Positions 9,669 through 64,000 of a DNA stretch of 64,000 bases are shown here, piece by piece. Each line of letters begins with the position of its first letter. Positions within the stretch are counted from its first letter, which is position 1. Below the pieces are notes generated by a model. That model made no database searches and was not told where the DNA came from. It saw nothing but the letters and a program-made list of their open reading frames with translations. Source of the stretch: Nemertoderma westbladi. Lineage: Eukaryota > Animalia > Xenacoelomorpha. The DNA lies in NCBI GenBank assembly GCA_032718475.1, contig JAUCBJ010001428.1, positions 854 through 64,853 on the forward strand. The letters run 5' to 3'. A program made the position numbers and the translations under genes.

Positions 9669-9699
9669 AACGATTTAGGTTAAACAATAGATCAGTATA

Positions 9700-41000: not shown

Positions 41001-41135
41001 AACCAATGACATTCTTGAGACGCATCTTAAAGGACACTGGCCTTGAAGATGCGGATGATCTAGCAAATGTCATGGGTGATAGGGAGTTGTGGCGGCGCAA
41101 TTTTGTCGACAAGCCGGCACAGCATTCTTAAAAAT
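38040..41135 (+). mobile_element. Decayed non-LTR retrotransposon (RTE-like; APE endonuclease plus RT), with stops and frameshifts
   Basis: EN motifs VGVQEHR, CYSPT, LGDFNA, SQIDHIL, SDHCLI; RT motifs QNGFRKGRGT, FVDFFKAFDSV, GVLQGDTLAPFLF, DFADDL, FCYLGS; C-terminal RLRFAGHCFR; split over at least four ORFs. Confidence 0.93.
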
Positions 41136-42709: not shown

Positions 42710-43053
42710 GCATTAAGAATGCTGTGCCGGCTTATCAACAAAGTTGCACCGCCACAACTCCCTATCCACCATGGCTTTCGCGAGATTATCCGCATCTTCA
42801 AGGATGGTGTCCTTTAAGAGGCGTGTCAAGAAAGTCATCGGCTGTGTCTGTCTGCCATGCTTATTTTCTCCATGGAACTGTCAAAGCAAGGGCACACCAC
42901 ACACACAGTCTGGTCCTCTCGTCTAAAGAAGTCCAGCAAAGCAGAGACATCTTGATTCAAATCTCAGAACTAATGAGACACTTCCAATGTTATATAGTGT
43001 TTGGTTGATCATGTGCATATTGTACTTGAACTTGACACAATTAACATGACGTG
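42710..43053 (-). mobile_element. 5'-truncated, diverged 3'-end copy of the same LINE family
   Basis: TAAGAATGCTGTGCCGGCTT...CGCCACAACTCCCTATC...ATCCGCATCTTCAAGG is the reverse complement of ~40790-41130. Confidence 0.85.
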
Positions 43054-43486: not shown

Positions 43487-45011
43487 CCCTTAAACTGGTA
43501 ACGATTTTTTCTAAAACGCCATCTCCACTTGGTGAAAACTCAAATATGAGTTTTGCGATTGTCAGTTCTACTTGGTGGGAATTATTGATGAAATCTATTC
43601 TGACTTGGTGTAAACTCAAATATGAGTTACAGTAAAACGGTTCTGACTTGGTTCCAACTCACATATTAGTTTCGGCTATACATTTGTTTATCAGCTCCCG
43701 GGAAGGTAGCATTGACTTTTCTGTCTACGTCACCAGGCCCATTGTATTGGGCTGTTGATGAGCTTTACAACCAACAGTAGTTGAATCGGCTACAGACGAT
43801 CAGTATACGCTAAACAACACGGTAGTAAATTGTGGGAATATTGTCAAAATTCAACTAATGGCCGTTTCATTATTATAAGTCACAGAAACAAACTGTTAGC
43901 ACCAGGTTGAAGGTCATTTTCTCATCCTTCAGCTGATAATATATAACGGCCTCTGAAGTTGAAAATTAAGCAGTCTATCGCTAATTTAATGTTTGAAGTA
44001 ATTCGACGCAGTTATTTTAAAATAATGAATCATATTCGATAAATAAAATACTGTTAAGATCCAGTTTTTGTCAACATTTTAATGCGCATAAATACATTTA
44101 TGCTGGAAGCTGGACTGGAAGATTTGGCAGATTTAAAGTACGAGCTAAGCGAATTCTAAAATCCCAACGAGTGCAAAACTCAATACACGATGGCAGAATA
44201 TCTTAATTTCGTACCTCCGAAACTAGTGACAAGGAGTTATCTGATTAATTTTTTTCGGATCTATTAAGCGTCAAAGATACATTATATTATGTATAATTTA
44301 CATTCATTGCATAATTATTATTTTAAAAATCTACGAAATTTCTGGATTTACCTTTTATGAATTTAAACTTTATAAATATAAGAAAAACTCTCACCAAGGG
44401 GGAATAGAGCAGAGAAATATAATCTCTACCAAGTCCAGACGATGGCTCATAAACTCATGAGTTTTCACCAAGTCCAGACGATGGCTCATAAACTCATGAG
44501 TTTTCACCAAGTCCAGACGATGGCTCATAAACTCATGAGTTTCACCAAGTCAACTAATTCTTCTTAAAAAAGATCCACCAAGAGGGAATACACTTGCGAG
44601 AACTCAAATATGAGTTCTAACCAAGTCAGATACTACCATTAAAAAAATTCCCACCAGGTAAATGTAAAGTAAAAATTCCCACCAGGTAAAAGTAAAGTCA
44701 ATTTTCTTCCGCCCCTAGGCCAGGGATTACGCACAAAGTCTGACGACTTATTTCCAGTGCGGTCCCCCCAGAACTTTACTCCCCAGAGGAAACTCTAGTA
44801 CTCATTTAGCTACCAGTTAAGGATGCAAGGCAGAGATGCGCTCTGGCTGTCCCATTAAAGCATTTGTGCCGAAACGAAAACTGCCTTGGCCCATGTGAGG
44901 ATCGAACCCACGACCTACGGGAGATGTGAATTCAATGCAACCACTACACCAAGGTCGAACATAGGTGGAATTGGCCGTCCCAAAACTCATGAGTTTTCAT
45001 CAGTTCAAGGA
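43487..45011. mobile_element. Non-autonomous piggyBac-like element
   Basis: TTAA|CCCTTAAACTGGT ... ATCAGTTCAAGGA|TTAA; many AAACTCA(AATA)TGAGTTT palindromes linked to ACTTGGT (left) or ACCAAGT (right); 41-bp tandem at 44428-44551. Confidence 0.65.
44690..44955 (-). mobile_element. tRNA-derived SINE nested in the piggyBac-like element
   Basis: Minus strand A box TGGTGTAGTGG and B box GGTTCGATCC ending TGGGCCA; central TAGCTAAATGAGTAC reminiscent of the Deu/Nin SINE core; TTTAC-type tail. Confidence 0.65.
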
Positions 45012-45412: not shown

Positions 45413-46623
45413 TGTACGCGCTTTTGGAGACCTTTAGCAGTTTAACCTGCCAAAATTTATATGTCTTTAGTTGGTAAATTAACTTTATAAGATGACAAGA
45501 TTTAATACAAAATAAACACAACATTAGCCGAAACCAGCCTAGTGCGCGTTCATTCACCCGCTGGATATTCCCGGGAGACTGGATTCGTATGCTTAGATTT
45601 ATTGCAGTGAAGCCTACTTGTATTATTCGATTGATCACTAGTATATAATCTCTGGCAAATATTATTCACTTTCGGGAAATATTAGCAGTTCCTTTCGGAC
45701 GTGGCGTTCTATCTATGTAAACAAAGTTATGACTTACACCAAACACAACGATATGGCTTAGATTTCACGTATGAGACGCATTCTTTAGGAGATGCTTAGT
45801 TATCAGTCTCAATCACAATCATACACACTACCGGTACCGCACAATACTGCTCACTGGTTTGCCGACAGTCACTGACTTTGATCACGTATAAAGAGAATAG
45901 CACTTGACTCAAGTAGTGGCTACCAAATAGCATTATATTCACTACAAACCACTATAATATAAGTCGCAATCGTTGTATGTAAACTGTCTCTCTAACCTGT
46001 AGTGTATCAAGAAAATTGGGAACTTTGGGTTCTTTATATGTGTTCTCCAAATAATATTCAACCAAACAACAGTAAATAGCAGTATACTGATATATTGAAC
46101 CGATAATGTAAGAACTGATTAGAAAATAAGGTATGAAATATAATAAGAACTGTGATATGCACTGATAACAGTCATACGCTCTATAATCTAAGACTACTAA
46201 TGTTTCTTATAAAGTTATAAAAATACGTGATTCCAGAGCCGTTCTTCCTGGCTTAGAATCCTCAACAACACACTCGTGACTACTCCCTATACAAGGGTAC
46301 CAGCTACCCTTATTCCACGAAGCTCTCACCCACCACAGAGAATGAGCATACAGATAGGAAATTCAGTTCAGTAGATCTGTGATAGGTCAAAATCAAAACC
46401 AACTCAAACCCTATTGGCAGATACAGAAAGCAGGGCTATGGGGCAACCTTCCCAAGCTGGTTGGACGATCAAACATAGCCCAGATCCCTTCGCACAGCAA
46501 ATCAGCCAATCAGCCGGTAGCTTGCACTATTCGAGTTATAGATCCCTTTTGAGAGTATTCTAGCGCCAGGGGGGAACTGGTTAGCAAGGCGAACGAATCA
46601 GTTATCCCACAAAAGCTTTTACA
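45413..46623 (-). repeat. 3' LTR of BEL/Pao element (~1211 bp)
   Basis: TGTA...TACA termini; about 6 differences by eye from 62821-64000 over 1180 bp; right end inferred from the adjacent PPT. Confidence 0.92.
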
Positions 46624-46631
46624 CCGCTCCC
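46624..46631 (-). other. Polypurine tract of BEL/Pao element
   Basis: Minus strand GGGAGCGG immediately before TGTAAAAG. Confidence 0.65.
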
Positions 46632-46701: not shown

Positions 46702-49700
46702 TTAGTCTTTCTTGCGCGGACGGCGTTTACGCAGTTTTTTAAAGCTAGCCAGAGTCTTTTTCTCTTTGGGGCGAGCCACTTTACAAGGAGGGCTATAACT
46801 CCTGGGTGAAGGGTGCAATATAATTGCATCAGAAGGTGCAGGATTGTGGTCGGTGTATCCGCCGGTTGAAGTGCCTGGTAGGTTGACATCAACTTCGGGG
46901 GACTGGGGTCTAACGGCTTTTAGAGCGCGTTTTAAGACGGCTGCTCTTACGGGTCCCTTACGCGTGGTCTGAACGAGAGCCGTGGGTGGACCATAGGCCG
47001 TTAGAAATTGCCTTGGTTTAATGGTTCTTTCCAACTCGCGTTCGCGGGCTCGATATTCGTAAGGCCGTCGATATACCTCTTGTAACTCAGGGTGTGAGTT
47101 AACGAATATTTCTCCATAATCAGGGTCGTGACGGATAAAATTAATTAAGTGATAGGAATGAATATCACTGGGATTAACCTGTCTGAGGAATTTGCGCACA
47201 AACTTAGTCGAAATGCATTCTCCGACGCGCTTCAGTAGCTCGTAACTCGGTATGCGTGCTTTCTGTTCGACAGAAGCGAATAGGTAAGGATGGAACGCAT
47301 AAACTCCTTCGTAAGCGCGTCCAGGGTAATAGCGGTGGCGTGAGTTACAATGCAAATCAGCGTTCGCTTCCCAAGCTCTAATATAACGGAGTGTAATCAA
47401 TTCATCTACACTTTCTAAATCTTTATTAAATGGACAATCAAAGCTGGCGTGTCCTTTTAGTTGACAATGGTGGCATTGCGTCATAAATTGAGGACAGACT
47501 GCAAAAATGTGCGAACTATTGAGTCGACAATAGGCACAGTAAATTTCCATCGACGGTTGTTCGCGGAAATAAGAACATGGGGCGTTCGTGTCCATGGGCG
47601 TAATATGGTCTCTAGATGCGCATAACCGACAACGCTGTCGATCAACATAGTTGGCATGACGATAATCGTACGCAGTGAGACACTGTGGACCTTGATACCA
47701 TTCTAGTATATAGTCGTTGTCGCTGTTCCGAGGCGTGGTAGGTTGAATCTCCTCGGATTCTAGACATATTGGTTCGTCTTCCCATTGCATAGCTGAGGTG
47801 GGCGTAACCGTCTCTTCCGGTGGACCTACTGTTTGCATTTCCACGACAGAGTAACCTGTGGTGATTCTAGGTCTTTGAATAACAGAAGAATGCAGATTCG
47901 ATATACAAATATCCTTAAAAATGGCAAATCCAGCACTATCTAACTTCTCAGCGGCGGAGTGTCTGAGGCTGAGTTTGGTCAACGCGCGGTCTTTAAATTG
48001 ACTATCCATGTTACGAAACGGTGTTAGGAATCGTCGGAAACATTCAAAGCGGATGAATTTATTATGTTCATCTAGCTTAGCGAGTTTGGTCCCAAGTACT
48101 AATGGATGGGCGCGTATAGTACGGCTGCACACATCGGCTAGCCAACCGGAAAGTGCGGTGTTTTCAAAGATCGTGTAGATAGCTAAGGAGGGACGTAGTG
48201 GGACACTCATGAAGCTATACACGGCGCCAGGTGCGGTCAATGGTCCGTCAAAGTATAATCGTGAATAATGGTCTCCATATATTTGTTGATAGTTTATGGG
48301 ATTTCCAACCTTGAAATTCCATCCGTATTCCTGAAAGGCCAGATGTCCGATGGAAGTTCGTTGAACTTTGGTAATGTCGCTAGACGTATTAGCATACATG
48401 GTGCGGAAGAAACCTCGGCCTTCTGCCCAGGGAGCAATTAACTGTGTATCCACGAAAGGATATGGTATATCCTCCATATTCCGAAAATCGTTTTGGAGAT
48501 CTCCATAAACAGCGGAACCGAGTTTAAGGATTCTTTCGTTGAACAACATCTCGAGGACGGGCTGTGGTAACATCGATCCATCAATACCCATGGCCGGTTT
48601 GCGTTCGGTGTCGATGACGTAACGCTGCGCAAGTGCGAATTGACCATGTCGGAGATTCTTTTGTGTTTCGGTGAGAGTTTCAAAAGAATAATCAATCACG
48701 TCGGAACACGCTCGAGTAAACACGTGAGTAGAACCGGCTAATCCGCGTATGTGGATCATGCGCGTAGTTCCTAATTCTCCGACCGGAACGCTGCCTTCAT
48801 TGTCGTAGGTGACGACTCCATACATCTCAATGATATTAAGAGTTTCATTCCACTCTTTCGTAGCGTTCTCGAGGGTCATCCCTACTGGATGCCACAAGGT
48901 GGCGCATTGGTTAGCGTCAGGGAGATCTCTATACCTCAGGGATTGCGTGTTACACGTCTCAATATTTCCCTGTCTTTGTATTCTTTCCTCCTCGAATAAT
49001 ACGTCGAGATTCCAATGGACTAATCGAGTTTTAATGAATCCATCGAGGTTATAGGGAGGTGTAGCATCATTCTCAATTCTAGAGATATTATATGGTTTTC
49101 TAAATGAGTTTACCTTTACTAACTGATCCAAATGTTTCTGTAATTGCTCGAGTTCGACAATGTCTAGAGGATTTATTAGCGGTAGAAACTTTAAGTTATG
49201 CGTCGGATCTTCCGGTTTTATCAGATAATATTGAGTCAGATTAACGTAATAAGGGTGGTCTTTAATCCCATAAAACGAGTTCGTTAAAGGTCTAGCGCGT
49301 ATGTTGACATCGTGTACCATACGACGGACAAGATCCGCTCGATCGTCCGGAGGTTCAACGAGTATACCGTCAACACGAGCAGCTTCGATTGGCGGACGCT
49401 GTAACATGGGGGCGTCGGCGATAAGATCACGTGATCTTATACTAATATCAACCGGCTGGGGTTGTGCCGTCGCGAAGAGTTTGTCTCCGAAATGGGGAAT
49501 CATCGAGGGGTGACGGATGGTTTTAGAGTAGAGATCCGTCATAAGGATTTGGGCTTCGGGTTGGGCTAAAGCGGCTTCTTCCCTCTCGTCCATTTCCGTA
49601 TGCTTCTTTTCGAGTTGATTCTCCTCCACTTGTTGTTGTAGACGCTCGTCCAAAAACTCCTGTAGGGAATACGTGCGTCCAAGCTCGATATCTTCCTCTA

Positions 49701-50955
49701 GATTTTGGATTTCTCGATCAAACTGTGGTAAGGCTAACTCTTTCACTGCTTGGACTTGTTGCTGTAATTTACGTTTCTCTAAGCAATCCTGTGTTCCCTT
49801 CCCGATTTTCTGTCGAATAGCGTCTAAAGCATTTCTTATAACGCTCTCCTCGACTTCCGTGGCAGGTTGTATAGGGGTTAATCCTGGCCGATTGTAAGGA
49901 TTAAATGGCGATGTTAGATGCCCGCGTCCCAATCCGGCTAAATAGGATGGTCGAATATCTAACGAACCCACTGCTGGAGCACCACCAATTAACTGCTCGG
50001 GTAACACCAAATCTTTGAACAAAGAATATAGTTCGGGAGGATCAGTGATACTGTTAGGATCAAGAGTTTGAGGTCTCACCGGGGAATGAGGAGGCCTGAC
50101 CGAGTATTCCGGAACTCTGATCATGGGTTTATTTAGTGACCGTTTGAGGCGAGCGATCGTGGGTGATACATCGAACAGGTTTCGCTCGAAACTCCCGTAC
50201 GTATAACGCGTAAAACTGTGTTTAGCGCAACGTCTCCGCGGATGTTTATGTCTTTCCGTTTGTTGGTTGGGTCTAGGGCATTCGTCACAATAATACCAAA
50301 GACGTACGTCCTGTAGGGGAAACGCGGGTGATCGTTCTCCAGTTTTACAATATTCCTCCATTTGTTCGAAGCTATCGGGAACAACGGGTAGTGGACGATC
50401 GGCGGTGAGATACATCATAGTGAAATAGAGTCTTTTGAGCTCTACTATAGGGTCATGATGTATACCTTGAGGATATCGAGTCTCTAGGTTCTGTTGACTG
50501 GCAATATTGAGATAGGTTTCTCTCAAAAATTCTAGGTAATCGTTGAAGTCGATACGTTTATCTGGTTCCTCAACGTTTTCTCTTTCAAGTCGGTTACGAA
50601 TAGAGTTCTCGTGGTCTATTCTCGGTTTATCGTTACGACTCCGCTGGGTATGATACTTAAATAAAACCATTTCCCTTTCGGTGTCTACATCGTCAGTATC
50701 ATGTAAGTCGGTAGGGTGGCCGGTAGTTAGGAAGTCCATATACGTACCATTACGATGTGTATAGCGCGCCGTGAATTTTCTATAGTCCAATTCACGCGTG
50801 AGTTGCTCTTGAGACATCGGCGGTTCGATATAACGACCATCGTCTTCCGTAGTAGTGGGATCGGGTTCACCACTTATCAAGCTATCCACAAACGCTTGTA
50901 AAGGTAGAGTATATCGCTCCCTGATACCAAGATCATCTTCTATCAGCTCCGTCAT
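46702..50955 (-). CDS. Accessory ORF2 (1417 aa): DEDDy-type 3'-5' exonuclease-like domain plus three CCHC zinc knuckles and basic C-terminus
   Basis: VVTYDNEG (ExoI), LPQPVLEMLFNERILKLGSAVYGDL (ExoII), FVDTQ, SIGHLA, PLRPSLAIYTIFE (ExoIII-like); CRLC..H..C, CAYC..H..C, CHHCQLKGHASFDC; KKLRKRRPRKK; no signal peptide or TM segment. Confidence 0.85.
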   Translation of the reverse strand: MTELIEDDLGIRERYTLPLQAFVDSLISGEPDPTTTEDDGRYIEPPMSQEQLTRELDYRKFTARYTHRNGTYMDFLTTGHPTDLHDTDDVDTEREMVLFKYHTQRSRNDKPRIDHENSIRNRLERENVEEPDKRIDFNDYLEFLRETYLNIASQQNLETRYPQGIHHDPIVELKRLYFTMMYLTADRPLPVVPDSFEQMEEYCKTGERSPAFPLQDVRLWYYCDECPRPNQQTERHKHPRRRCAKHSFTRYTYGSFERNLFDVSPTIARLKRSLNKPMIRVPEYSVRPPHSPVRPQTLDPNSITDPPELYSLFKDLVLPEQLIGGAPAVGSLDIRPSYLAGLGRGHLTSPFNPYNRPGLTPIQPATEVEESVIRNALDAIRQKIGKGTQDCLEKRKLQQQVQAVKELALPQFDREIQNLEEDIELGRTYSLQEFLDERLQQQVEENQLEKKHTEMDEREEAALAQPEAQILMTDLYSKTIRHPSMIPHFGDKLFATAQPQPVDISIRSRDLIADAPMLQRPPIEAARVDGILVEPPDDRADLVRRMVHDVNIRARPLTNSFYGIKDHPYYVNLTQYYLIKPEDPTHNLKFLPLINPLDIVELEQLQKHLDQLVKVNSFRKPYNISRIENDATPPYNLDGFIKTRLVHWNLDVLFEEERIQRQGNIETCNTQSLRYRDLPDANQCATLWHPVGMTLENATKEWNETLNIIEMYGVVTYDNEGSVPVGELGTTRMIHIRGLAGSTHVFTRACSDVIDYSFETLTETQKNLRHGQFALAQRYVIDTERKPAMGIDGSMLPQPVLEMLFNERILKLGSAVYGDLQNDFRNMEDIPYPFVDTQLIAPWAEGRGFFRTMYANTSSDITKVQRTSIGHLAFQEYGWNFKVGNPINYQQIYGDHYSRLYFDGPLTAPGAVYSFMSVPLRPSLAIYTIFENTALSGWLADVCSRTIRAHPLVLGTKLAKLDEHNKFIRFECFRRFLTPFRNMDSQFKDRALTKLSLRHSAAEKLDSAGFAIFKDICISNLHSSVIQRPRITTGYSVVEMQTVGPPEETVTPTSAMQWEDEPICLESEEIQPTTPRNSDNDYILEWYQGPQCLTAYDYRHANYVDRQRCRLCASRDHITPMDTNAPCSYFREQPSMEIYCAYCRLNSSHIFAVCPQFMTQCHHCQLKGHASFDCPFNKDLESVDELITLRYIRAWEANADLHCNSRHRYYPGRAYEGVYAFHPYLFASVEQKARIPSYELLKRVGECISTKFVRKFLRQVNPSDIHSYHLINFIRHDPDYGEIFVNSHPELQEVYRRPYEYRARERELERTIKPRQFLTAYGPPTALVQTTRKGPVRAAVLKRALKAVRPQSPEVDVNLPGTSTGGYTDHNPAPSDAIILHPSPRSYSPPCKVARPKEKKTLASFKKLRKRRPRKKD

Positions 50956-51178
50956 ATCTGCTATTGGAGTTTATTAATGTTACAACGAGTTTATATTGTA
51001 TATTTTAGGCGAGCGGGCGTCGCTGCCTAACACTCTCGGCCCCCCGGACAGTGGGATCCTCAGCGCCGATGTACCGTTGTCGCAGTGTTTACGCCAACGT
51101 TGTAGCAACAGCACGACAACGATAACCGGCACAAGTCACTCCACTGTCCGTCCCAAAGGCTTGGATCCACTTGAGGTT

Positions 51179-51186
51179 CTTATATA
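51179..51186 (-). promoter_or_regulatory. Candidate TATA box of an internal promoter for ORF2
   Basis: Minus strand TATATAAG ~225 nt upstream of the ORF2 ATG, inside the 1.46-kb spacer after pol. Confidence 0.35.
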
Positions 51187-52420
51187 GGAGAGTTAGGTTT
51201 ACTTTACGATTGCGACTAGCTACTGTAAACACACTTTAGTAGCAACATTCACCTACAAACGCACAAATTCCACACAAATGTCACCAATTATAAGCATACA
51301 GGCCATTTGTCCGTTAGTCAGTGCCTTCCAGAATGTCACGTTGTTATTGCGTATCCTTGGATACTAAACAGTGCTACGTAATCTCTATACTAGGCAATGG
51401 GGCAAGCTTTCTATTGTTCCTTTAACTCGTTTCTAATTCTAGCGTGGGTGTTGCCATGGTGACATTATGGAAAGCTAGCGGTAGAATTAGGGTAATTCTC
51501 ATGCATACAGATCTGGGATGCTATTTAATAGTAATTCTTTAATTGTCAATATCCTCTCTATGCATGATTTTATTAATTTTATCGGCTATTGACTATATGT
51601 TGGAGATTTTCACACTCTAACACACTCAAGGGGATGAATCTCCGCTCCCATGATCTATTAATTAATGGAATTTTGGGAATGTTGTAAATTGCATAAAATG
51701 ACAATTTATTAAATTCATTTAAAGATATGAATTCAAATTTATTCCCGTGAATTTTATTATTTGATGGTAAAATTGACATAATTTTATTCCAGAGCTTATC
51801 TGGGGACGTTAACCACTGATTCTAGAATTTGTCTTTCAAGTATATCGGTGGGTGCCGCGATATCTTAATCGACTAGAATTACAGATGGTCAAAGGTGTAA
51901 CAGATTTATTTGCGATTTACGCTACTGTTAGAGGGACATCACGCTACTATATGTATTATTTAATATAAGGTAGAAGAGCAATATCGCACGAAGCAATGTC
52001 AGTGTGAAGAGGCAAGTCGTTTCCAAGGTCTACCCAGAGCTTGGTTTAGCCGAGACACGAGGATCTGAACTTTGCATTCCTAATACTCTGCCTACCAATA
52101 ATACTTAAATATAGTAGTGGCTTTATTGTACTTTAATAAGTACGGACATTTCATCTTACTGTAGTCACGTATTTATAATATGATACGGACAGTAAGGAAA
52201 GAGAAAAAATTATTTCTCGCCGTCGCACTAAATATATATTATAAGTAATTACGTACGTAATAAACACTAATATATTGCACTAATCTACTAAATAATACTA
52301 AAATAACATTCTACTAAATAAAATTAAATAAAACGATTATAATAAAGTACATAATAATATTTACATATAAAATGTAATAAAATAGATAAATAATATAGAC
52401 ATACACCCACTCCAGACGTA

Positions 52421-55400
52421 CTACGTTGAGGAGCCCCTAGATGTTTGAGGGATTAGGGAGGTGGTCGTGGGAAGAGTTTCTTGCTTTCCATAGTTTCCGG
52501 AGAGTTCCCGGTCTCTTTCCAGCAAACATAAACGACCAACTGGGCGATTGAGTTGTTGCGTCTCAAAGATTATGCCGGGTTTCTTGAAGTTACGTCGCAT
52601 GACGACGAGTTCTACTGAGCGCACTAAACCATCCTCCGAGATGTGCGTCTCAATGATACGACCTGTCTGCCACCGTCTGCGTGGAAGGTCCGGATCTACA
52701 ATAAGCACCATGTCTCCGGCGCTGACATTTTCCTGCTGCGCAAACCACTTAGTTCGAAGTTGTAGCGTGGGCAGATAATGTTTCTCAAAATGGTCAGCGA
52801 AACGACGGGATAGCAACTGCATAAGCTGCCAAGTTCGACGGCAGTATTCATCTCCGTCGGCAATCTCGGATTGTGGGAGCATGGCTACAGGTTTCTTAAG
52901 TAGGAAGTGAGCGGGGGTTAGCGCTTCCAGGGAATCGGGACTCGATGAGACTGGCATAAGCGGTCTCTCGTTAAGATAGGCAGCGATTTCCTCCATTAAC
53001 GTCCGCAGAAGTTCGTCAGTGAGATATGCGCGGCACGGCACTATAAAGTGAAATGCGGTTTTGACACTTCGAATTAATCTCTCCCAACTTCCTCCCCACC
53101 AAGGGGCGTCGGCGGCGTTAAAAGTCCAGCTAGACGCTGTTATCCGTAGCTGGTCGTCCACCTGTCTTTGATTCCAGTCCTTTACGTAAGCCTGAATTTC
53201 GTTGTTGGCACCAATGAAGTTCGTTCCCTTGTCCGATCGCATGGTATGACTAGTTCCGAAGCGAGCGATCTGTCGTCGTAAACTTAAGACGAAGCTGTTA
53301 GTAGATAGATCGTTCACCATATCAAGATGGATGGCTCTACAAGTCATACATACGAAGATGACACACCATCTCTTGACTATAGTCCTAGCGCGATATACTT
53401 CAATAGGGCCAAATAAATCTACACCAGTATTAGTGAAGGGTGGTTCATAAAAGCTTACTCGTTCCCTAGGTAATTCTGCCTCTCGCTGTGTTAAAGGCCT
53501 ACTGAATGCTTTCCTACAGGGTATGCAGTTCCTAAGAACTTGGTTCAGAGCTCTACGTGGTTTATAGAAATAATAGCGAGTTCGAATTTCGCTAAGAACT
53601 CGTTCTCTACCAGCATGATAAAGTTTACTGTGAACATCTACAATCATCTTGATTTGTACTTCAAGATTCCTAATGAGTATGGGGAATTTAGTGTCAAAAG
53701 ATAATGGCGCATTAGTTAGCCTTCCTCCAACACGTATTAACCCATCTATCATTGTGCTAGAGAAGCGATCCCTTAAGCGCATCTGTGGATTTCTTAACAA
53801 CAGGAAATACTTGTCGGAATCCTCGTAGCATTGCAGGAGTCGCAGTATCTGTTTATTGGCTTCTTCATGCTCCTGGTAACTGATCTTTTCTTTTAGAAAC
53901 CGATCGGGTATTTTATATTTAGGTAAATCTTTAATAGCATGAACTTGGACCGATGTTAATGGAGCAGTATCATTAGTGGTCGTCTTCGTCTTGGAATAAC
54001 GATGATGAAAACATCGCTTTAAATATGCGACGGCCTTACAGAGCCGATTCCAGGAACTGTAATGATGTATTGCTCGCTGCAGCAGGGGTGAGATTCCTTG
54101 CGAGACGTCTGGTATTCCAGATTTCCAATCTCTATCCTTAATTTCCACAACAGACTTGTTTGTGACGAGGGATTGTGGATCCGCAGCATCATTTCCGGAA
54201 GCATGTAATACAGATAGATCGATTGTCGGTTTAAATAACTTCGATTTGCTCGCTCGGGTTTTAGGTTTGACCTTTTCCGCTCCCTTGGCTTGTCTGATCT
54301 CTGCCGTAGTAAGGTGAGGAGGCCATTCATCTTCTTCCTTGCTCAGGAAGTCGGGTCCACTCAACCAGTCTGGAGTATCTATCAGTTCCTGTGGAGTGGC
54401 TCCTCTGGAGGCGATGTCAGCTGGATTAATCGTACCAGGGCAGTGTCTCCATTGATCTATTGTTGTTCGACTAAGGATAATGGCCACTCTGTTGGTAACA
54501 AAGACGCTGAACTGACAGACTTCATTGGTTATATACTCCAATACGAGCAAAGCGTCGGTCCAATAAACCGTTTTCTCCAGTGGATAATCGATCTGTTCCG
54601 TGACATTCCGTCCGATGGCTGTAGCGTAGAGAGCCGCTTTTAACTCCACTCGAGGAACCTTCAACTTGTTGTTAATCAATGCCTTAGAGGTGACCAAGGC
54701 GACTTTGATTCCATCCGGGGTTTCGACTCGAAGGTATGCTACTATTCCTATTCCCATATCGCTAGCGTCTCCAAACACATGGAGTTGATAGGAATATGTA
54801 GGGAGAACATGACCAAAATATGAACGGGGAATTATAAAATTCTCGATGGCAGGTAGGGAATCTTCCCATTTCATCCATTTCTTTAACAGTTCTCCCGTAA
54901 GTGGATCGTCCCATGAGTGGTTTTCAAGCCACATTTGTTGTACTAAACTCCGAGCAATCAATATGACTGGGCTAATAAATCCCAATGGATCGAAATAAGT
55001 GCTCAGGATACTTAGACAAATCCGTTTGGTCCGAACTGGATTCTCTCGCTGTTTTAGCTGAAAAAACAGGATATCTCTCTCCGTGTCCCACTTCAAGCCA
55101 AGCGTCTTGGTTTCTGGAAGATCATCTTTTATTAGGTCGAGGTCTTTTGTTCCTCGGTCTTCTACTGGTATCGCTTCCAGAAACTCACGGGAGTTACTGG
55201 TGAATTTCGTCAGTCGAAATCCACCTCTTTTCAAACACTCTACCGTTCCTTTCGCGACATCAATGGCTTCTTTTACCGATGGAAGGGACTTTAAATTGTC
55301 GTCCATGTATATGTCCTTTTTGATGTTGTCAATTACCTCTTTTGAGAAGGCGTCTCGGTTGTCATCCGCAGTGGTCCGTACCACGGAGCAAGCGTTTGAA

Positions 55401-58400
55401 GGACTGGATATGATCCCAAAAGCCTGGATGGTCATCCAGTACTCCACTGGTTTCTGTTTGAGGTCGCCTTCAGGCCACCATAGAAACCTTAGACTGTCTC
55501 TATCTCTATCTAACGCCTTGACCTGTAAGAACATGCCTTCTATATCGGAAGCAAACGCGATGGAATATTGTCTTAATCTGAGAAGTATTCCCAACAAGGA
55601 TTGTAGCAAGTTGGGTCCTGGTAACAACTCGGAATTGAGAGATTGACCCATATATAGAGCGGAGCCATCGAATACAACTCGTACTTCATGTGGTTTACCG
55701 GGTTTGGGAACGTAATGATGCGTTAGATAGTACGTTCTCTCTGTTATGGGTGTTTCTTCCGGTACTCGTTCCGCATAACCTTTGCTGATAAATTTCTTCA
55801 ACTGCGTTTGGTACATTTCTTTAGCTGAAGCATTTGCTGTAAGGCGTCGATGTAATTGAGCGATTCTTTTCTCTGCCAATGGTCGGTTGTTTATAAATCT
55901 AGGTTCTCGTTTTCGAAAGGGTAGACCGATTTCATATCTCCCTTGTTCTTTTAGAAAACGTGTAGTTGTCTCCTGGATTTGCTTGGCTCTTTCCTCTTCT
56001 ATTGATAGAGCCTTATCGTACGAATTGGGTTCTACCAACTCTTGTGTAAAGAATCGTACGGCGAGTTCGTCCCGGGTTCTAGCGTTGTAACGCTCTATTT
56101 CGTCATTGAGTTCATCATTGTAGTCAATGGGTCCCGACGGGCGAATCAGTTGACACAAAGTTCGCTGATCATTCCACAATTTATTTTCGGTTAGTAGGTC
56201 GATTGTGTTCTCTTCCTCGAAGAGTTGATATATGTCGTCATTATCTGAGGAGTATGGTGTTCCCTCAGTGGGTTCGTCCACTTCACTGCTCTCCTCTTCC
56301 CAATCCTTTACTTGAAGTAGCCGGTCTTGTGGCAATCTTTCTTCAAGAGTTCTGCGGGAAGGGCCAGTAAAGTACCAACCTACTCTAGTTCTTACCGCAT
56401 AAGTTTGTAATGGCTGCGGTTGAGCAGGCCGTTTCTCCAATGTCTCGAGCGCCTCATGCGCGTTTTGGCCGATGAGGATTTGCACTCCAGGATAATCTGT
56501 CTGGAATCGAGGTATCTTAAGATGTTGGATGCTCTCATCCTCGTCCCAATTATAAAGGTCTGCTTGGGTAGTAGCGAAGTTCTTTATAGCCACCATTTTT
56601 ACTGACCTTATACTTTGTTCTCCTAATTTATCCTGTGGGGTGGACAACGCACCTACATAGTAATCTGCCGTTATGGTAGATTTCCAAACCTGCATAATTC
56701 CGGACATATTCAACTTAGTTCGGAATTTGGGTTGTCCAGCAAAGATATCCTCGGCTAATTCTTTGTCGATGAATGTTCCGGTGCTTCCGGAGTCAAGGAG
56801 GGCGTTCACTATGTAACTTTTGTTAGGACCGTGAACTCTTACCTGTACTACCGGAAATTCTCGTATTCCTACGTTGGAGGTTGGAGCTTTCCAAGATGGT
56901 TGTCTGTCAAAGGTGGTTAGGGGGAACTCCGTGTCGGTGTCCTTTTCATATGTAAGTGCTCTATACACTGTGGTATTTATTAGATAACAGGATTCGTTGG
57001 CATCGGAGAATTCGTCCGTATAGAATCCTTCCCACTCAGAACCTTGGTCAGTGTCGTTCACATCACTGAATTGGACATGTAGTTCTGGCTCACTCACCTG
57101 ACTCGGGTGGTTTCGTTCGAATTCACTGTGTAACAAGACGTGATGTTTCGCACCGCACTTTGCACACTTTATGTCAGAGTAACAGTTTCGCCGTTGGTGT
57201 CCTGGTCTGAGGCAATTATAACACAACCGCTTATCCCACACTACTTCTCGTCTGGCTACTAGGAATTTCTTAAAGAATTCAGTACACGCACTCAAACGGT
57301 GGGGCCCGTCGCACAGCACACAGTTTGGCTTGATGTTGCTCACTTTACCTTGGGTAATGTTATGTACTTTCGCTCGTTCTTCGGGCTTTCTTACCTGAAT
57401 TCGGTTGGGAGACTGAGGAGGGGTCTTGGTAGCCTTGTCTCTCCTATCATTTGTTCGCGGCTTGTATTTACTTACATCTCTAGGGGTCTTGTTAACATAG
57501 TAAGAGTGGTCAGTGTCTTTCCCGCTGTCCTCTTCTTGAGACGCTTGGCTTTCGCCGTCGTCAGTATAACATACTGGGTTTACCCTTCTCCTAGTAACTG
57601 GTTTCTCACTTACCTTATTTTCCGATGTTTTTTCTCTGGACTGTTTTATGAGTTGTAGTTTGACCTCACCGTCTAGGAATAACATGAGATCAGCCATGGT
57701 AGGGCTCCGTCGTTGTTGCTCCATCATATACAACACTTTCTTGTCCCAGCGAGTACATACTCCACCCTTTGGTAAAGTTGAGACTATGGCTCCAATAACC
57801 ATAGAACTCTGATATTCATGAGACTTACCTAACCAATCCAATTGTCGGCAGATCTCTTGAATCTCATCGGAAAATTCTATAATCTCGTTACTAAGGAACT
57901 TTCGGGGAGCTACTAATTTTGCATACAAATACTTAGCTATGTTATCCTTATTACCATACCTGGTGTTTAATGTATCCCAAACTTGTCTTAATCCATTTGG
58001 ATGTCCAATAAACTTCAACGCCATTAACTTGGGAGGTCCTTCCAAACATTTGATGAGGAATCTCAGTTTCTCTCCGCTAGATAGTACAGAGTTCTGTATG
58101 CTATCTTCATAATATTCATTAAACGGTAACCATTTCATTTCATCTCCATTGAATTTGACGATTTCTCCCACTTTGACCGCTTGGCGGGCTTCTGTTCTAG
58201 CCATCTGACGCATAAAGCTTTCTTGGGCCATCGTGTTATTTAATATCGAATTATCGGTATATAAATTTCTCGGATTATTATCAGGTCTATAGGGAATATC
58301 ATTACAAACAGGTTTATAATCACCCTTAATAGGGTTTGCTATAGGAGTTTCTACTTCGCTAGCAGTATAGATGCGTGTAGGCTCCACACCTTGCGCATGA

Positions 58401-60601
58401 AATACTTCAGGCCTAACAGGTTGACACATTGTTACAGGGGGTGTTGGTATGCCCCTTTTTACATTTACTAATTTATCGCGTTCTAGCGCGATACTTTGCT
58501 GCACTTCTTGTAGCTCTAACCTACTTTCCCTGACAGTTCCCTTGAACTGGTGGACCGTCTCCCGCATCTGTCCGAGCAGGACATTCATCCCTTTCCGTCC
58601 CTCCTCCACCCACTCGACCGCCGAAGCGGGAGTCGCCAACGTTGTGGCGGGCGGGCGAGGGACTACGGGCGACCAATCCATACGCTCGGAGTCCATGACA
58701 GGAACCATTTCAGGGGCTGTTCTACTAGGCACTGATAGTTTCGTGCTGTGTAAAGGGAATTTAGAGGTTGCTCCCTGGAATACAGGTGTCTCTAGCACCG
58801 AAGTGGTGGCTTCGAGAACAGGCCTAATTATTTCAGGTTCATCTGTTATAGTAGGGAGTCTACTTACAGTAACAATCCGGTCTGTGTGTTCTGTACTCGC
58901 TACGGCTGTGCTAGCTAGTTGTCTTCTAACAGCTGGAGGTAAATCAGGCAATTTCTGACGGGGAGACGTTCTTTTACGCCTACTTAGACGAGATCTATTT
59001 CCTCCACCTTCAGGGTCGGTGGTATCTCCTTCATCAGAGGAGGTAAATCCCTGTCGTTTGGAAGTAGATCGACTCATCATCTGCATTCGACTATCCGTTA
59101 ACCGTTTATTTATACTATCTTGACTTTCCTGAATATTTTCCAACGCTAGCTGGGCGATCTCGTCAGACGCTCTCCTTTCTGCTTCTGCCAATGCCTCCGC
59201 CGCTTTTCTTTCTGCCTCTGCCACTGCAGTCTTTCTTTCTGCCTCTGCCGCCTTTCTTGCTGCTTCTGCCTCTGCCTCTGCTGCCTTTCTTTCTGCCTCT
59301 GCCACTGCAGTCTTTCTTTCTGCCTCTGCCGCCTTTCTTTCGGCTTCTGCCTCCTTTCTTTCTGCTTCTGCCTCCGCTGCCCTTTTTGCCGCTTCCACTG
59401 CCGCTGCCGCTTTTGCCGCTGCTTCTGCCTTTCGGTCCTCTATCTGTTTTTTCTTGACTTGTTCTTCCTGGGCTCTAGCGATGCGGAGTTGTTCATCAAA
59501 TTTAGCTTGGTTTGCAGCTAACATTTCCGTATCAATTGCGTCCAACACATGCTTGGTTCCTTCACTATTAGGGGAAAGTCCAGCCAGCCTTCTTCTCAAC
59601 TCCTCGTCTCCTAGGAATCTCTGATAGTCTGACAGATAGATATCAATGTCGTCTCTCGGTCGCGGTCCCTCTGCTGTCACTTCACTTTCCACTTGAGAAA
59701 AGGTGGCATCGGTTGATTCTTCGTAGGTTGGTCGCTCAGCCAACCGGGATTTCCACTGGGCTGTTTCTTGAACTTTGAGTCCTACCCGCTGGAACCAAGT
59801 CTTGACAGCAACTTGCAGAGACGTGTCCTGCCTTCTTTTGGAAGTTTCCTCAAAGGCCGATAGGATCAGTCTAATACGTAGAGTTCTTTCACGTACTTGA
59901 TAAAGCAGCTCTTCCTGCTCTTGAGGTCGTTTTGGTTGTCGAAACAGTTGTTCTTCTAGTCTCTCTAAAGAGCCGAAGAATCCCTGCACATATCCTGCTG
60001 CCGACCTCTTCCAAACAGCTGGATCCATAGTATCTTTAGTCACTCCCATCCGGTATATGTCTTCCCAAGTAGCTTCTGACAAATCTAACGGGAATCCGAG
60101 TCCGGGAAAATTCCATTGTGACTCGACAATAGACATCAATTCTTCCCTTGCGTAGCCCGCATAACTATCCTGGGTCGATCGCTTATTTCTCGCCCAATCG
60201 CCTTGGTGTTCCTCCACCGCAATCAAGATCGTAGTTAGTACCGCGGCTGGAAGAGTAAGAAGGGGATCCGAGTAAGCTGTACCCACCATCTTCACTCCGC
60301 GTTCGGGGGTCAGCTCTACAGTATCCGAACCACTGGAGCTATCGGGTCTCTGGGGAGTAGGTTCTTGACCAAGATGTTGCTGCGATAGAACAGCTGCCTC
60401 TTGGTTCCGTTTGACCTGGGCCCGAGTGCCTATGATAGACCTATGGTGGATTAGCCTAGGGTCTGATACTACGGGAGGGATGACCTTTCTTTTAGTAGGA
60501 GGTGAACTAAACTCTTCTCTTAATCGTTCCACACTCCTATCTTTGTCACAGATGGTGACATCGAGTAGACTATCCGACAGGTTTTGTTGTGTGTCAGACA
60601 T
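52421..60601 (-). CDS. gag-pol: BEL/Pao Gag-Pol polyprotein (2726 aa) with long N-terminal extension
   Basis: FNGD..KW..F Gag motif; triple knuckle CVLC..H..C, CYNC..GH..C, CAKC..HH.LLH; LLDSGS (PR); YLTHH, RVVFDGS, DIEGMFLQV, YMDD (RT); FGDAS, PRVEL, WTD, NPADIASRG (RH); H..H..CIPC, GVDLFGP, SDKGTNF, WERLI (IN). Confidence 0.98.
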   Translation of the reverse strand: MSDTQQNLSDSLLDVTICDKDRSVERLREEFSSPPTKRKVIPPVVSDPRLIHHRSIIGTRAQVKRNQEAAVLSQQHLGQEPTPQRPDSSSGSDTVELTPERGVKMVGTAYSDPLLTLPAAVLTTILIAVEEHQGDWARNKRSTQDSYAGYAREELMSIVESQWNFPGLGFPLDLSEATWEDIYRMGVTKDTMDPAVWKRSAAGYVQGFFGSLERLEEQLFRQPKRPQEQEELLYQVRERTLRIRLILSAFEETSKRRQDTSLQVAVKTWFQRVGLKVQETAQWKSRLAERPTYEESTDATFSQVESEVTAEGPRPRDDIDIYLSDYQRFLGDEELRRRLAGLSPNSEGTKHVLDAIDTEMLAANQAKFDEQLRIARAQEEQVKKKQIEDRKAEAAAKAAAAVEAAKRAAEAEAERKEAEAERKAAEAERKTAVAEAERKAAEAEAEAARKAAEAERKTAVAEAERKAAEALAEAERRASDEIAQLALENIQESQDSINKRLTDSRMQMMSRSTSKRQGFTSSDEGDTTDPEGGGNRSRLSRRKRTSPRQKLPDLPPAVRRQLASTAVASTEHTDRIVTVSRLPTITDEPEIIRPVLEATTSVLETPVFQGATSKFPLHSTKLSVPSRTAPEMVPVMDSERMDWSPVVPRPPATTLATPASAVEWVEEGRKGMNVLLGQMRETVHQFKGTVRESRLELQEVQQSIALERDKLVNVKRGIPTPPVTMCQPVRPEVFHAQGVEPTRIYTASEVETPIANPIKGDYKPVCNDIPYRPDNNPRNLYTDNSILNNTMAQESFMRQMARTEARQAVKVGEIVKFNGDEMKWLPFNEYYEDSIQNSVLSSGEKLRFLIKCLEGPPKLMALKFIGHPNGLRQVWDTLNTRYGNKDNIAKYLYAKLVAPRKFLSNEIIEFSDEIQEICRQLDWLGKSHEYQSSMVIGAIVSTLPKGGVCTRWDKKVLYMMEQQRRSPTMADLMLFLDGEVKLQLIKQSREKTSENKVSEKPVTRRRVNPVCYTDDGESQASQEEDSGKDTDHSYYVNKTPRDVSKYKPRTNDRRDKATKTPPQSPNRIQVRKPEERAKVHNITQGKVSNIKPNCVLCDGPHRLSACTEFFKKFLVARREVVWDKRLCYNCLRPGHQRRNCYSDIKCAKCGAKHHVLLHSEFERNHPSQVSEPELHVQFSDVNDTDQGSEWEGFYTDEFSDANESCYLINTTVYRALTYEKDTDTEFPLTTFDRQPSWKAPTSNVGIREFPVVQVRVHGPNKSYIVNALLDSGSTGTFIDKELAEDIFAGQPKFRTKLNMSGIMQVWKSTITADYYVGALSTPQDKLGEQSIRSVKMVAIKNFATTQADLYNWDEDESIQHLKIPRFQTDYPGVQILIGQNAHEALETLEKRPAQPQPLQTYAVRTRVGWYFTGPSRRTLEERLPQDRLLQVKDWEEESSEVDEPTEGTPYSSDNDDIYQLFEEENTIDLLTENKLWNDQRTLCQLIRPSGPIDYNDELNDEIERYNARTRDELAVRFFTQELVEPNSYDKALSIEEERAKQIQETTTRFLKEQGRYEIGLPFRKREPRFINNRPLAEKRIAQLHRRLTANASAKEMYQTQLKKFISKGYAERVPEETPITERTYYLTHHYVPKPGKPHEVRVVFDGSALYMGQSLNSELLPGPNLLQSLLGILLRLRQYSIAFASDIEGMFLQVKALDRDRDSLRFLWWPEGDLKQKPVEYWMTIQAFGIISSPSNACSVVRTTADDNRDAFSKEVIDNIKKDIYMDDNLKSLPSVKEAIDVAKGTVECLKRGGFRLTKFTSNSREFLEAIPVEDRGTKDLDLIKDDLPETKTLGLKWDTERDILFFQLKQRENPVRTKRICLSILSTYFDPLGFISPVILIARSLVQQMWLENHSWDDPLTGELLKKWMKWEDSLPAIENFIIPRSYFGHVLPTYSYQLHVFGDASDMGIGIVAYLRVETPDGIKVALVTSKALINNKLKVPRVELKAALYATAIGRNVTEQIDYPLEKTVYWTDALLVLEYITNEVCQFSVFVTNRVAIILSRTTIDQWRHCPGTINPADIASRGATPQELIDTPDWLSGPDFLSKEEDEWPPHLTTAEIRQAKGAEKVKPKTRASKSKLFKPTIDLSVLHASGNDAADPQSLVTNKSVVEIKDRDWKSGIPDVSQGISPLLQRAIHHYSSWNRLCKAVAYLKRCFHHRYSKTKTTTNDTAPLTSVQVHAIKDLPKYKIPDRFLKEKISYQEHEEANKQILRLLQCYEDSDKYFLLLRNPQMRLRDRFSSTMIDGLIRVGGRLTNAPLSFDTKFPILIRNLEVQIKMIVDVHSKLYHAGRERVLSEIRTRYYFYKPRRALNQVLRNCIPCRKAFSRPLTQREAELPRERVSFYEPPFTNTGVDLFGPIEVYRARTIVKRWCVIFVCMTCRAIHLDMVNDLSTNSFVLSLRRQIARFGTSHTMRSDKGTNFIGANNEIQAYVKDWNQRQVDDQLRITASSWTFNAADAPWWGGSWERLIRSVKTAFHFIVPCRAYLTDELLRTLMEEIAAYLNERPLMPVSSSPDSLEALTPAHFLLKKPVAMLPQSEIADGDEYCRRTWQLMQLLSRRFADHFEKHYLPTLQLRTKWFAQQENVSAGDMVLIVDPDLPRRRWQTGRIIETHISEDGLVRSVELVVMRRNFKKPGIIFETQQLNRPVGRLCLLERDRELSGNYGKQETLPTTTSLIPQTSRGSST
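59170..59432 (-). repeat. Coding repeat AEAERKA(A) (coiled coil) in the Gag N-terminal extension
   Basis: TTTCTTTCTGCCTCTGCC-type units in frame. Confidence 0.85.
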
Positions 60602-61884
60602 ATTTAGTTATACAGTTGAATGCCTACTGCTATAGTTACAGTTAAAGCAAGTCCAGTAATTCAGTAGGACTGCTGGCCTAGTACCGGTAATTAATTACAA
60701 TATATTAGGATACCGGTATACACTTATAATATATATAAGTATTGTAAACTAGTTTTGTCACAGAGTACCGGTATATAAATTTAGCACAAATATATAAATA
60801 TATAATAGGCCTATCGTGAATACCGGTATACAGTTTACACTGATAGTATATATAAGTATAATTATGGACTAGAATTAATTACAGAGTACCGGTATGATTT
60901 CCGCTCAAATTTATAGAAATAAATATAATAAGCCTATCGTAAATACCGGTATGTCAATTATTTTAGAATAATTGAATTTCTGAATATTTTAGGGTTACTT
61001 GGTTACTTTAACTTACTTTGTTACCGTTATTTAAGCAGTAGTCCAACTGATATTGAGACCTAGTTGTTGTATGACAGACCTACTAGTTTATAAATCTTTT
61101 AAGTTGATTTATAATATATATATATATACCCTGATAAGGGGTTTTGTTACAATACTGAAATAGATGTTACTATTTCTGGGAAATAATCACTACACAGAAG
61201 CTGTGCGCTCTCAGTGAAGTGCTACTTATTAGACACTAAAACGAATAATTCTACTGGCCTACGTTACTTATCTATTAATTACTTACAATATTGTTGAGAT
61301 TACAATCTCTAATAAACTCACGAAAAGACTATACGTACGAAATTTTTAGGGCAATTTAACAGGGAAACTACAAACCAGTCTAACAAAGGGTTAGAACTTC
61401 TGGTTATTACAACGGATAGGATACTACAGTATTTGAAAATAATAAGCAGAAGTAAATATACTGCGTTGTCCAGATAGGAAAATACCACCGCCTGACGACC
61501 TACAGCCGTATCGCTATAGGTACTACGTTATGTATCACGGAGTGTTCCTACCTAGAGGTTAATAGAACAAACGTGCCTATGAACCACTTTACAACACAAA
61601 TATAATGCCTACACTAATTACTTTCGGAAAGCACTGTACACTAAACCCTAAGTTAGGTACAAGTACTTGTAAAACAAATAACCTGCAGTTAAATATACTT
61701 GAACAGTTAAAAGAACCACAGCATCTGCTGGAGTGACCGGGGCACAAAGTCACCAGTCTTTACCTACGCCAAGCAGCCCGTGTAGTACCGGGGTTAATTT
61801 AACTATAACGGTATGTATAACAAACACAATTACTGTAGGAATAAACTTGGGGACATGAATGTTGCGAGTAATCGCATAAACTCT

Positions 61885-62809: not shown

Positions 62810-62820
62810 ATGACTGTTAT
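62810..62820 (-). other. 11-nt PBS ATAACAGTCAT complementary to the element's own LTR (63574-63584)
   Basis: + strand ATGACTGTTAT abuts the LTR; its reverse complement ATAACAGTCAT is at 63574-63584 and 46165-46175. Confidence 0.8.
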
Positions 62821-64000
62821 TGTACGCGCTTTTGGAGACCTTTAGCAGTTTAACCTGCCAAAATTTATATGTCTTTAGTTGGTAAATTAACTTTATAAGA
62901 TGACAAGATTTAATACAAAATAAACACAACATTAGCCGAAACCAGCCTAGTGCGCGTTCATTCACCCGCTGGATATTCCCGGGAGACTGGATTCGTATGC
63001 TTAGATTTATTGCAGTGAAGCCTACTTGTATTATTCGATTGATCACTAGTATATAATCTCTGGCAAATATTATTCACTTTCGGGAAATATTAGCAGTTCC
63101 TTTCGGACGTGGCGTTCTATCTATGTAAACAAAGTTATGACTTACACCAAACACAACGATATGGCTTAGATTTCACGTATGAGACGCATTCTTTAGGAGA
63201 TGCTTAGTTATCAGTCTCAATCACAATCATACACACTACCGGTACCACACAATACTGCTCACTGGTTTGCCGACAGTCACTGACTTTGATCACGTATAAA
63301 GAGAATAGCGCTTGACTCAAGTAGTGGCTACCAAATAGCATTATATTCACTACAAACCACTATAATATAAGTCGCAATCGTTGTATGTAAACTGTCTCTC
63401 TAACCTGTAGTGTATCAAGAAAATTGGGAACTTTGGGTTCTTTATATGTGTTCTCCAAATAATATTCAACCAAACAACAGTAAAATAGCAGTATAATGAT
63501 ATATTGAACCGATAATGTAAGAACTGATTAGAAAATAAGGTATGAAATATGATAAGAACTGTGATATGCACTGATAACAGTCATACGCTCTATAATCTAA
63601 GACTACTAATGTTTCTTATAAAGTTATAAAAATACGTGATTCCAGAGCCGTTCTTCCTGGCTTAGAATCCTCAACAACACACTCGTGACTACTCCCTATA
63701 CAAGGGTACCAGCTACCCTTATTCCACGAAGCTCTCACCCACCACAGAGAATGAGCATACAGATAGGAAATTCAGTTCAGTAGATCTGTGATAGGTCAAA
63801 ATCAAAACCAACTCAAATCCTATTGGCAGATACAGAAAGCAGGGCTATGGGGCAACCTTCCCAAGCTGGTTGGACGATCAAACATAGCCCAGATCCCTTC
63901 GCACAGCAAATCAGCCAATCAGCCGGTAGCTTGCACTATTCGAGTTATAGATCCCTTTTGAGAGTATTCTAGCGCCAGGGGGGAACTGGTTAGCAAGGCG
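62821..64000 (-). repeat. 5' LTR of BEL/Pao element (truncated by window end)
   Basis: Near-identical to 45413-46591; minus-strand TATAAGAA at ~63613-63620 and AATAAA at 63006-63011. Confidence 0.97.

Follow-up and report, generated by a model that had tools for sequence, protein, structure and literature searches.

A candidate DEDDy-type exonuclease gene with zinc knuckles in the env position of a BEL/Pao retrotransposon of Nemertoderma westbladi

Retroelements that carry a gene for a DEDDy-type exonuclease are known from rotifers, where Juno, Vesta and Athena elements bear such a domain in a third open reading frame (ORF), ORF3, for which a role in RNA 3' processing or in silencing has been proposed (PMC5408684); several reviews repeat this account (PMC6431247, PMC6338049, PMC5718144). 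The Dada DNA transposons of Laccaria and Ectocarpus also carry a DEDDy domain; unlike that of the gene reported here, it sits inside the DDE transposase and is thought to act on DNA ends (PMC3706591). Our study concerns ORF2, an accessory gene in a 64,000-nucleotide stretch of DNA from Nemertoderma westbladi (contig JAUCBJ010001428.1, positions 854 to 64,853; hereafter the window, to which all positions refer). ORF2 lies on the minus strand within a long terminal repeat (LTR) retrotransposon that is BEL/Pao by its sequence features. Amino acids (aa) ~700-945 of its product very probably form a DEDDy-type domain, and the region encoding it is under strong purifying selection.

Like ORF3 of the bdelloid rotifer Juno, Vesta and Athena-Terminon elements (PMC5408684, PMC6431247), ORF2 is a separate post-pol frame replacing env and appears to encode an RNase D-like DEDDy domain with one aspartate exchanged for glutamate. 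It differs from rotifer ORF3, compared here by its description, in its host (BEL/Pao rather than gypsy-like) and in the order of its acidic residues (probably D-E-D-E here, D-E-E-D in rotifers); at 1417 aa it also includes a knuckle module and an N-terminal part of ~700 aa. Purifying selection is seen here, whereas in PMC5408684 the sequencing covered the env-like and GDSL ORFs only and showed neutral variation. The preliminary description of this locus had doubted that the domain alone would be new, and rightly so, since a DEDDy ORF in such a position was already present in rotifer elements (PMC5408684). New here are the setting in a BEL/Pao element, the probable D-E-D-E site, the sequence evidence that the gene is under selection, and the family of knuckle-module genes. 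In nematode Cer (BEL/Pao) elements an exonuclease domain may follow the integrase in the polyprotein, beside env; our literature search did not confirm this. We found no report of an exonuclease gene in BEL/Pao in the literature searched, which lacked most subscription papers, including the older nematode ones; the word 'exonuclease' is absent from PMC3118150, PMC554778, PMC9094657 and PMC13524379, and is used in an unrelated sense in PMC11662393.

ORF2 and its exonuclease-like domain

ORF2 is encoded on the same strand as pol, starts 1465 nt past the gag-pol stop and ends 78 nt short of the 3' LTR, thus occupying the env position of some relatives. The intact frame claimed for it in the preliminary description is there, with 1417 open codons. 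Its parts are as follows.

46702..50955, minus strand: ORF2, accessory gene (1417 aa, zero internal stops)
50956..51245, minus strand: possible internal promoter and leader of ORF2, with a TATA-like box at 51186
50218..50349, minus strand: N-terminal Cys/His cluster (aa 203-246; C223, C226, C243 and nearby His)
48121..48858, minus strand: likely DEDDy/RNase D-type 3'-5' exonuclease domain (aa ~700-945; D718, E720, D819, Y927, E931)
47434..47631, minus strand: three Cys/His knuckles (aa 1109-1174)
47281..47388, minus strand: conserved segment past the knuckles (aa ~1190-1225; E, A, R and G invariant in 6/6 rows; common to five related modules)
46705..46779, minus strand: basic tail, a possible nuclear localisation signal

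A simple 19-residue hydropathy scan revealed no signal peptide or membrane helix in ORF2, as had been stated before; the maximum was only 1.1 (0.46 at the N-terminus), and ORF2 is therefore not an envelope protein, the signal peptide and membrane anchor of an env fusion glycoprotein both being absent. The N-terminal Cys/His cluster and the basic tail noted earlier are likewise present; the former has no Pfam match, and the latter, with Lys or Arg at 13 of the last 25 residues, may serve as a nuclear localisation signal.

The assignment of the central region to the DEDDy group draws on several kinds of search. When the domain alone was compared with NCBIfam, two of the three matches were to RNase D (E 0.007 and 0.016, residues 798-844), and D819 aligns to D85 of E. 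coli RNase D (E 0.001). A HMMER scan of 1.84 billion proteins returned three matches, including a 648-aa relative (P0003, E 1.9e-7) that has the knuckles and basic tail in common with ORF2 and is 28% identical to it over 187 domain residues. P0003 itself has a weak PF01612 match (E 0.2) and scores 12.1 bits on a profile built from 11 bacterial DEDDy domains, where none of 200 shuffles scored above 2.2. Aligned by hhalign with eight bacterial RNase D/NrnC-type proteins, a joint ORF2 and P0003 profile matched with a probability of 63% (E 7e-5) over 77 columns, in the ExoII region only. In the ESM Atlas, PF01612 clusters make up 25 of 30 feature matches at 0.92, scores of at least 0.9 being reached by 4-10% of shuffled proteins; all ten of the best family matches agree, and the top row (0.94) is unnamed. 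P0004, one of the three representative matches, was dropped as a repeat-rich chance match.

Other searches returned nothing further. PDB sequence searches found no nuclease, and Foldseek gave no matches at E<=0.001 for a query that was an unusable model of low predicted local distance difference test (pLDDT) score. Word-index protein searches for relatives yielded 0/2993, 0/675 and 1/7989 (the one being the query), a metagenome scan with ORF2 alone 0/51 stretches, and tblastn against phages and plasmids E=6 at best or nothing. Viral contigs held no match for ORF2, pol, P0005 (a second relative, described below) or P0003, pairwise comparisons with an NrnC-type protein and with one further protein from bacteria fell short of significance, and NCBIfam had no match for P0003 or P0005.

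The residues expected of a DEDDy active site can be traced through P0003. The motifs listed in the preliminary description lie where it placed them: YDNE at 48807 (D718, E720), ILKLGSAVYGDL at 48531 (D819), FVDTQ at 48456 and LAIYTIFE at 48186 (Y927, E931). The D-x-E of ExoI is present, D718/E720 aligning with D62/E64 of P0003, a pair whose own counterpart in RNase D and NrnC is the DTE motif; the ExoI of ORF2 itself is misaligned in the alignment with bacterial DEDDy proteins and lies outside the ranges matched by NCBIfam, E. coli RNase D and hhalign. The ExoII aspartate is D819, the equivalent of D85 in RNase D. Two segments of ORF2 match the spacing of ExoIII, and P0003 has counterparts of both; its canonical-looking W-x-x-P-L..Q..Y...E aligns with Y927/E931, with E-N-T identical, which backs the earlier reading of a glutamate at the last acidic position. 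Despite the 28% identity, D-x-E, D, DTQ, Y and E all recur at their positions in P0003. We thus consider, with some doubt, that the site is D718-E720-D819-E931 with Y927, the better of two registers. A pseudo-nuclease with Ser917 at the fourth catalytic position was considered and dropped, as P0003 aligns to Y927/E931. The same D-x-E, D, Y-x3-D layout is seen in EXD2, the site of which is D108-E110-D171-Y242-D246 (PMC6648332). Positions 48165-48260 encode tandem 14-residue segments, both spaced as ExoIII is (P-L-x6-Y), which may stem from an old duplication within the gene.

A number of observations weigh against this assignment, beyond the shuffle background of the ESM Atlas score. The TIGR01388 match reaches 15.6 bits compared with an equivalog cut-off of 299 bits, so that curated cut-offs are not reached, and Pfam shows no PF01612 or other exonuclease match on ORF2 (whole protein at E<=1, pieces at E<=10). 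On the bacterial DEDDy profile, ORF2 alone scores -0.6 bits, equalled by 7 of 200 shuffles, and AlphaFold gave no usable fold (pLDDT 29.7 with one sequence, 28.4 with two). The ExoIII candidate Y927-x3-E931, reached through P0003, has Glu instead of Asp; a joint MAFFT alignment prefers the other register, Y913-x3-S917; and the residues flanking the fourth site are not small, unlike the 'YAA' motif.

ORF2 resembles RNase D, NrnC, the WRN exonuclease, EXD2, MUT-7/Nibbler, EXD1 and Rrp6 in its ExoI D-x-E, ExoII D, DTQ and candidate ExoIII Y-x3-acid motifs. Unlike these cellular DEDDy nucleases, it has long insertions, probably Glu at its fourth site, and knuckles on the nuclease polypeptide itself, with no Pfam match to HRDC or MUT7-C. 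The preliminary description had called the exonuclease WRN/Mut-7-like; the DEDDy (PF01612/RNase D group) domain is indeed likely, the WRN or Mut-7 subfamily no more than possible, with the best matches to RNase D and to PF01612 broadly. Pfam searches of ORF2 (E<=1 whole, E<=10 in pieces) did not detect the MUT7-C domain that typifies MUT-7/Nibbler (PMC11347159), nor was there a Pfam match for an HRDC domain after the nuclease, as in RNase D and Rrp6 proper.

Knuckle module and selection in the family

The three CCHC knuckles described earlier are present in part as canonical motifs: the third is a canonical CX2CX4HX4C, while the second reads CX2CX5HX4C and the first CX2CX4HX9C. They match zf-CCHC_3 at E 0.001, below the cut-off. 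When a knuckle profile of ORF2, P0003 and P0005 was compared with the PDB, it matched a retroviral nucleocapsid (E 4e-5) and the knuckles of Lin28 (E 0.08); this resemblance to RNA-binding knuckles lends support to the proposal that ORF2 would bind RNA.

Scanning metagenomes with the alignment of ORF2, P0003 and P0005 gave 140 pattern matches, among which four loci were confirmed. The first, L007:124-2022, is P0005 itself, in which the knuckle module occurs twice, behind a nuclease-like N-terminus that is degenerate (ExoI D-x-K) and matches P0003 only weakly in pairwise comparison (E 3e-4). The second, L008:2-8212, lacks its 5' end and is the sole locus outside the window to show its element context: a BEL/Pao pol 28% identical to that of the window and, 1.7 kb past it on the same strand, a separate 929-codon frame with the knuckle module and without a detectable nuclease. 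A relative of this frame (25% over ~780 aa) is found at L010:615-3329. At L009:198-2241 a decayed knuckle module lies 1.3 kb downstream of an RT_RNaseH_2 remnant (E 7e-6) of gypsy-type look, which suggests that the knuckle accessory gene also occurs on other LTR groups. Fourteen columns are invariant in all six knuckle modules, including the segment past the knuckles. The ORF2/P0003 nuclease profile detected nothing in L008-L010 and was not significant on P0005; the nuclease is thus present in two of the five full frames, degenerate in one and absent from two, and the knuckle module is therefore the constant part of this accessory-gene family.

Family contigs, counted only where at least 80% alike, came from four runs of four studies, one of which (X1) is possibly the window's own sample. 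They cover ORF2 and every bin of the element in all four runs. Absence or decay of ORF2 across the family, named beforehand as an outcome that would speak against the gene, was not observed. Element-wide, the 40 variants listed (of 4332) include 17 in ORF2 (10 synonymous) and 15 in gag-pol (10 synonymous); none of the 12 listed indels (of 321) falls in ORF2, and the 15 listed joints (of 152) comprise six deletions in ORF2 and nine in gag-pol, which means that decayed copies exist. In the nuclease region (48150-48830; runs X1 and X3, variant share of at least 25%), 35 of the 40 listed variants (of 43) are synonymous where 11.1 would be expected (binomial P ~5e-15, in a test that treats sites as independent and mixes copies with alleles), giving a crude ratio of nonsynonymous to synonymous change (dN/dS) of 0.055 among the variants listed. 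No indel or joint among those listed falls in this region, and codons 718, 720, 819 and 913-917 are unchanged among the listed variants; none is listed at Y927 or E931, which lie near the edge of the tested stretch.

Upstream of the ORF2 start, the final ~290 nt lack an ATG and have a GC content of 0.49-0.50, richer than the remaining spacer. We infer an internal promoter here, and a splice acceptor may lie directly ahead of the ATG. At 51178-51181, adjoining the TATA-like box, family contigs of two runs diverge.

Host retrotransposon and self-priming signature

The element that harbours ORF2 has an LTR spacing of 17.4 kb and the following parts.

45413..46623, minus strand: 3' LTR (1211 bp, TG...CA ends)
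46624..46631, minus strand: short purine-rich tract adjoining the 3' LTR, a weak polypurine tract
52421..60601, minus strand: gag-pol of BEL/Pao type (2726 aa, one frame)
62810..62820, minus strand: primer-binding site (PBS), the first 11 nt past the 5' LTR
62821..64000, minus strand: 5' LTR, clipped at the window edge (~31 nt outside)
63574..63584, minus strand: candidate self-primer at LTR positions 449-459, complementary to all 11 nt of the PBS (copy at 46165-46175)

The LTR pair differs by five substitutions and one indel over 1180 columns (99.5% alike), and the insertion is therefore young. Gag-pol matches Peptidase_A17 (1e-36), DUF5641 (2e-19) and DUF1759 (1e-12) in Pfam and has its motifs in the order Gag, protease, reverse transcriptase (RT), RNase H, integrase, as in BEL/Pao (Belpaoviridae). 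The Gag carries a triple Cys-His box (aa 1094, 1127, 1146), a defining trait of BEL/Pao (PMC554778), and the TG...CA ends of the LTRs are also those of the group. Ahead of the DUF1759 Gag core lie about 800 residues (58200-60601), among them a repeat rich in Ala, Glu, Arg and Lys with a 21-27-nt unit (59163-59450). Just three ATGs occur in the 2.2-kb leader (60602-62820), which also contains a direct repeat of 187 nt (61938, 62221) and a tandem repeat of 38 nt (62624-62754); a tight hairpin lies immediately past the PBS.

An LTR complement of at least 10 nt, 0-5 nt past the 5' LTR, marks self-priming, a mode known in the Tf1/sushi, Tcn1 and TAR groups (PMC6317226). In the window the complementarity is 11/11 nt at offset 0, with matches at only 10 of 16047 internal control positions, and the pair forms in both the minimum free energy and the centroid fold (z -2.0, 0/20 shuffles). 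The first TGG is at nt 381 past the 5' LTR, and there is thus no PBS for a tRNA 3' end. As in Tf1 and Tj1 (PMC4600332, PMC6317226), the PBS abuts the LTR and complements an LTR-internal stretch in place of a tRNA-type PBS; unlike those Ty3/gypsy elements, this one is BEL/Pao, and its R-U5 would measure ~760 nt if transcription starts at the self-primer. No report of self-priming in BEL/Pao was found in the literature searched. ORF2 and the self-primer signature, a pairing that the preliminary description had considered notable, co-occur in one family, which by itself shows no dependence of one on the other.

Elsewhere in the window, a small LTR-type element with overlapping open gag and pol frames and a Ty3/gypsy look by its motifs (5680-9674) sits inside a 39-bp satellite (1-5398, 9970-13071). 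An intronless 644-codon frame at 29484-31418 has two thioredoxin-like motifs and presumably resembles TXNDC11. A frameshifted non-LTR retrotransposon with endonuclease and RT remnants occupies 37932-41009, a partial copy of which lies in inverted orientation near 42713-43029. At 24713-25232, 49-56-nt inverted repeats resemble a miniature inverted-repeat transposable element, and A- and B-box-like motifs seen by eye at 44900-44960 (minus strand) may belong to a tRNA-derived short interspersed nuclear element; ARAGORN found no tRNA there.

Possible roles of ORF2

We tentatively propose that ORF2 is an RNA-binding exoribonuclease that counters host RNA silencing. The protein would be made from a short transcript of its own, as the TATA-like box and ATG-free leader suggest, and the basic tail would take it into the nucleus. 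There the knuckles would bind single-stranded RNA and aim the nuclease, which, as a two-metal 3'-5' exoribonuclease of the DEDDy/RNase D group, would shorten the bound RNA from its 3' end. The likeliest targets would be the small RNAs of the host silencing response, or the antisense and cleaved transcripts from which these derive, making ORF2 a counter-defence factor outside the copying machinery. We favour this role because ORF2 is a separate gene with RNA-binding knuckles, a basic tail and a nuclease that is optional in the gene family; constant knuckles with an optional nuclease suit an accessory function more than a core step of replication. Three considerations weigh against the proposal. 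The substrate, like the fold, activity, expression route and location assumed here, is one that we infer; the degenerate nuclease of P0005 and its absence from L008 and L010 indicate that catalysis may be dispensable; and rapid evolution might be anticipated of a silencing antagonist, yet this domain is very constrained.

An unlikely, though serious, alternative to counter-silencing is that ORF2 is an RNA adaptor that exports, transports or protects the unspliced ~17.4-kb genome RNA. Its nuclease fold would then hold RNA with little or no cutting, as in EXD1, Maelstrom and Egalitarian. The knuckles and basic tail are retained in P0005, with its degenerate nuclease, and in L008 and L010, which have none, and the Glu at the fourth site, or Ser in the alternative register, would suit a non-cutting protein. 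There are precedents in inactive DEDD derivatives that retain RNA binding (PMC5408684) and in the export protein of the Cer1 retrotransposon (PMC10309623). Against an adaptor, ORF2 and P0003 have all four acids and the Tyr in common at an identity of 28%, and these residues are unchanged among the family variants listed.

We regard a part in reverse transcription, either trimming the 3' ends of the self-primer or of intermediates or proofreading the cDNA of a long genome, as distinctly unlikely. The self-primer signature is real, the LTR spacing is large, the nucleocapsid-like knuckles could bring ORF2 into particles, and the nidovirus ExoN proofreads long genomes (PMC7968707). Taken furthest, and quite improbably, this would be a self-priming BEL/Pao element with an RNA of at least 17.4 kb and its own editing nuclease, the knuckles loading ORF2 on to packaged RNA and the D-E-D-E domain trimming the primer or proofreading cDNA, as a retroelement counterpart of ExoN. 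On the other side, the Tf1 primer end is produced by RNase H (reference cited in PMC4600332), the available part of PMC6317226 describes self-priming in Tf1/sushi, Tcn1 and TAR without mention of an exonuclease, and that of PMC5408684 does not describe the rotifer elements with DEDDy ORFs as self-priming. Moreover, ORF2 is unfused to Pol and, as a separate frame, is not carried into particles within Gag-Pol.

It is also improbable that ORF2 processes RNA 3' ends of the element itself or dampens its own expression, leaving host small RNAs untouched. Such processing has been proposed for the rotifer DEDDy ORFs (PMC5408684, PMC6431247), and enzymes of the RNase D group trim structured RNA ends; we saw no RNA feature of this element that calls for trimming, and a search of positions 36000-64000 found zero Rfam families. 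That the exonuclease likeness is chance or a relic in a protein with another job is very improbable, for although the direct similarities are all weak (E 1e-3 to 1e-2) and the AlphaFold folds unusable, three kinds of search agree on one family, and conservation between ORF2 and P0003 falls on the motif residues.

Genes for exonucleases have been recognised as retroelement cargo since 2017, and ORF2 adds sequence evidence that such a gene is under strong selection; it also suggests that accessory genes built on a knuckle module, with or without a nuclease attached, form a wider family. As the retrotransposon family is intact, young and of high copy number, the function of ORF2 can be tested. 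If ORF2 does edit reverse-transcription intermediates, it would represent a new step in retroelement replication; if it breaks down silencing RNAs instead, an animal transposon would encode a nuclease for counter-defence.

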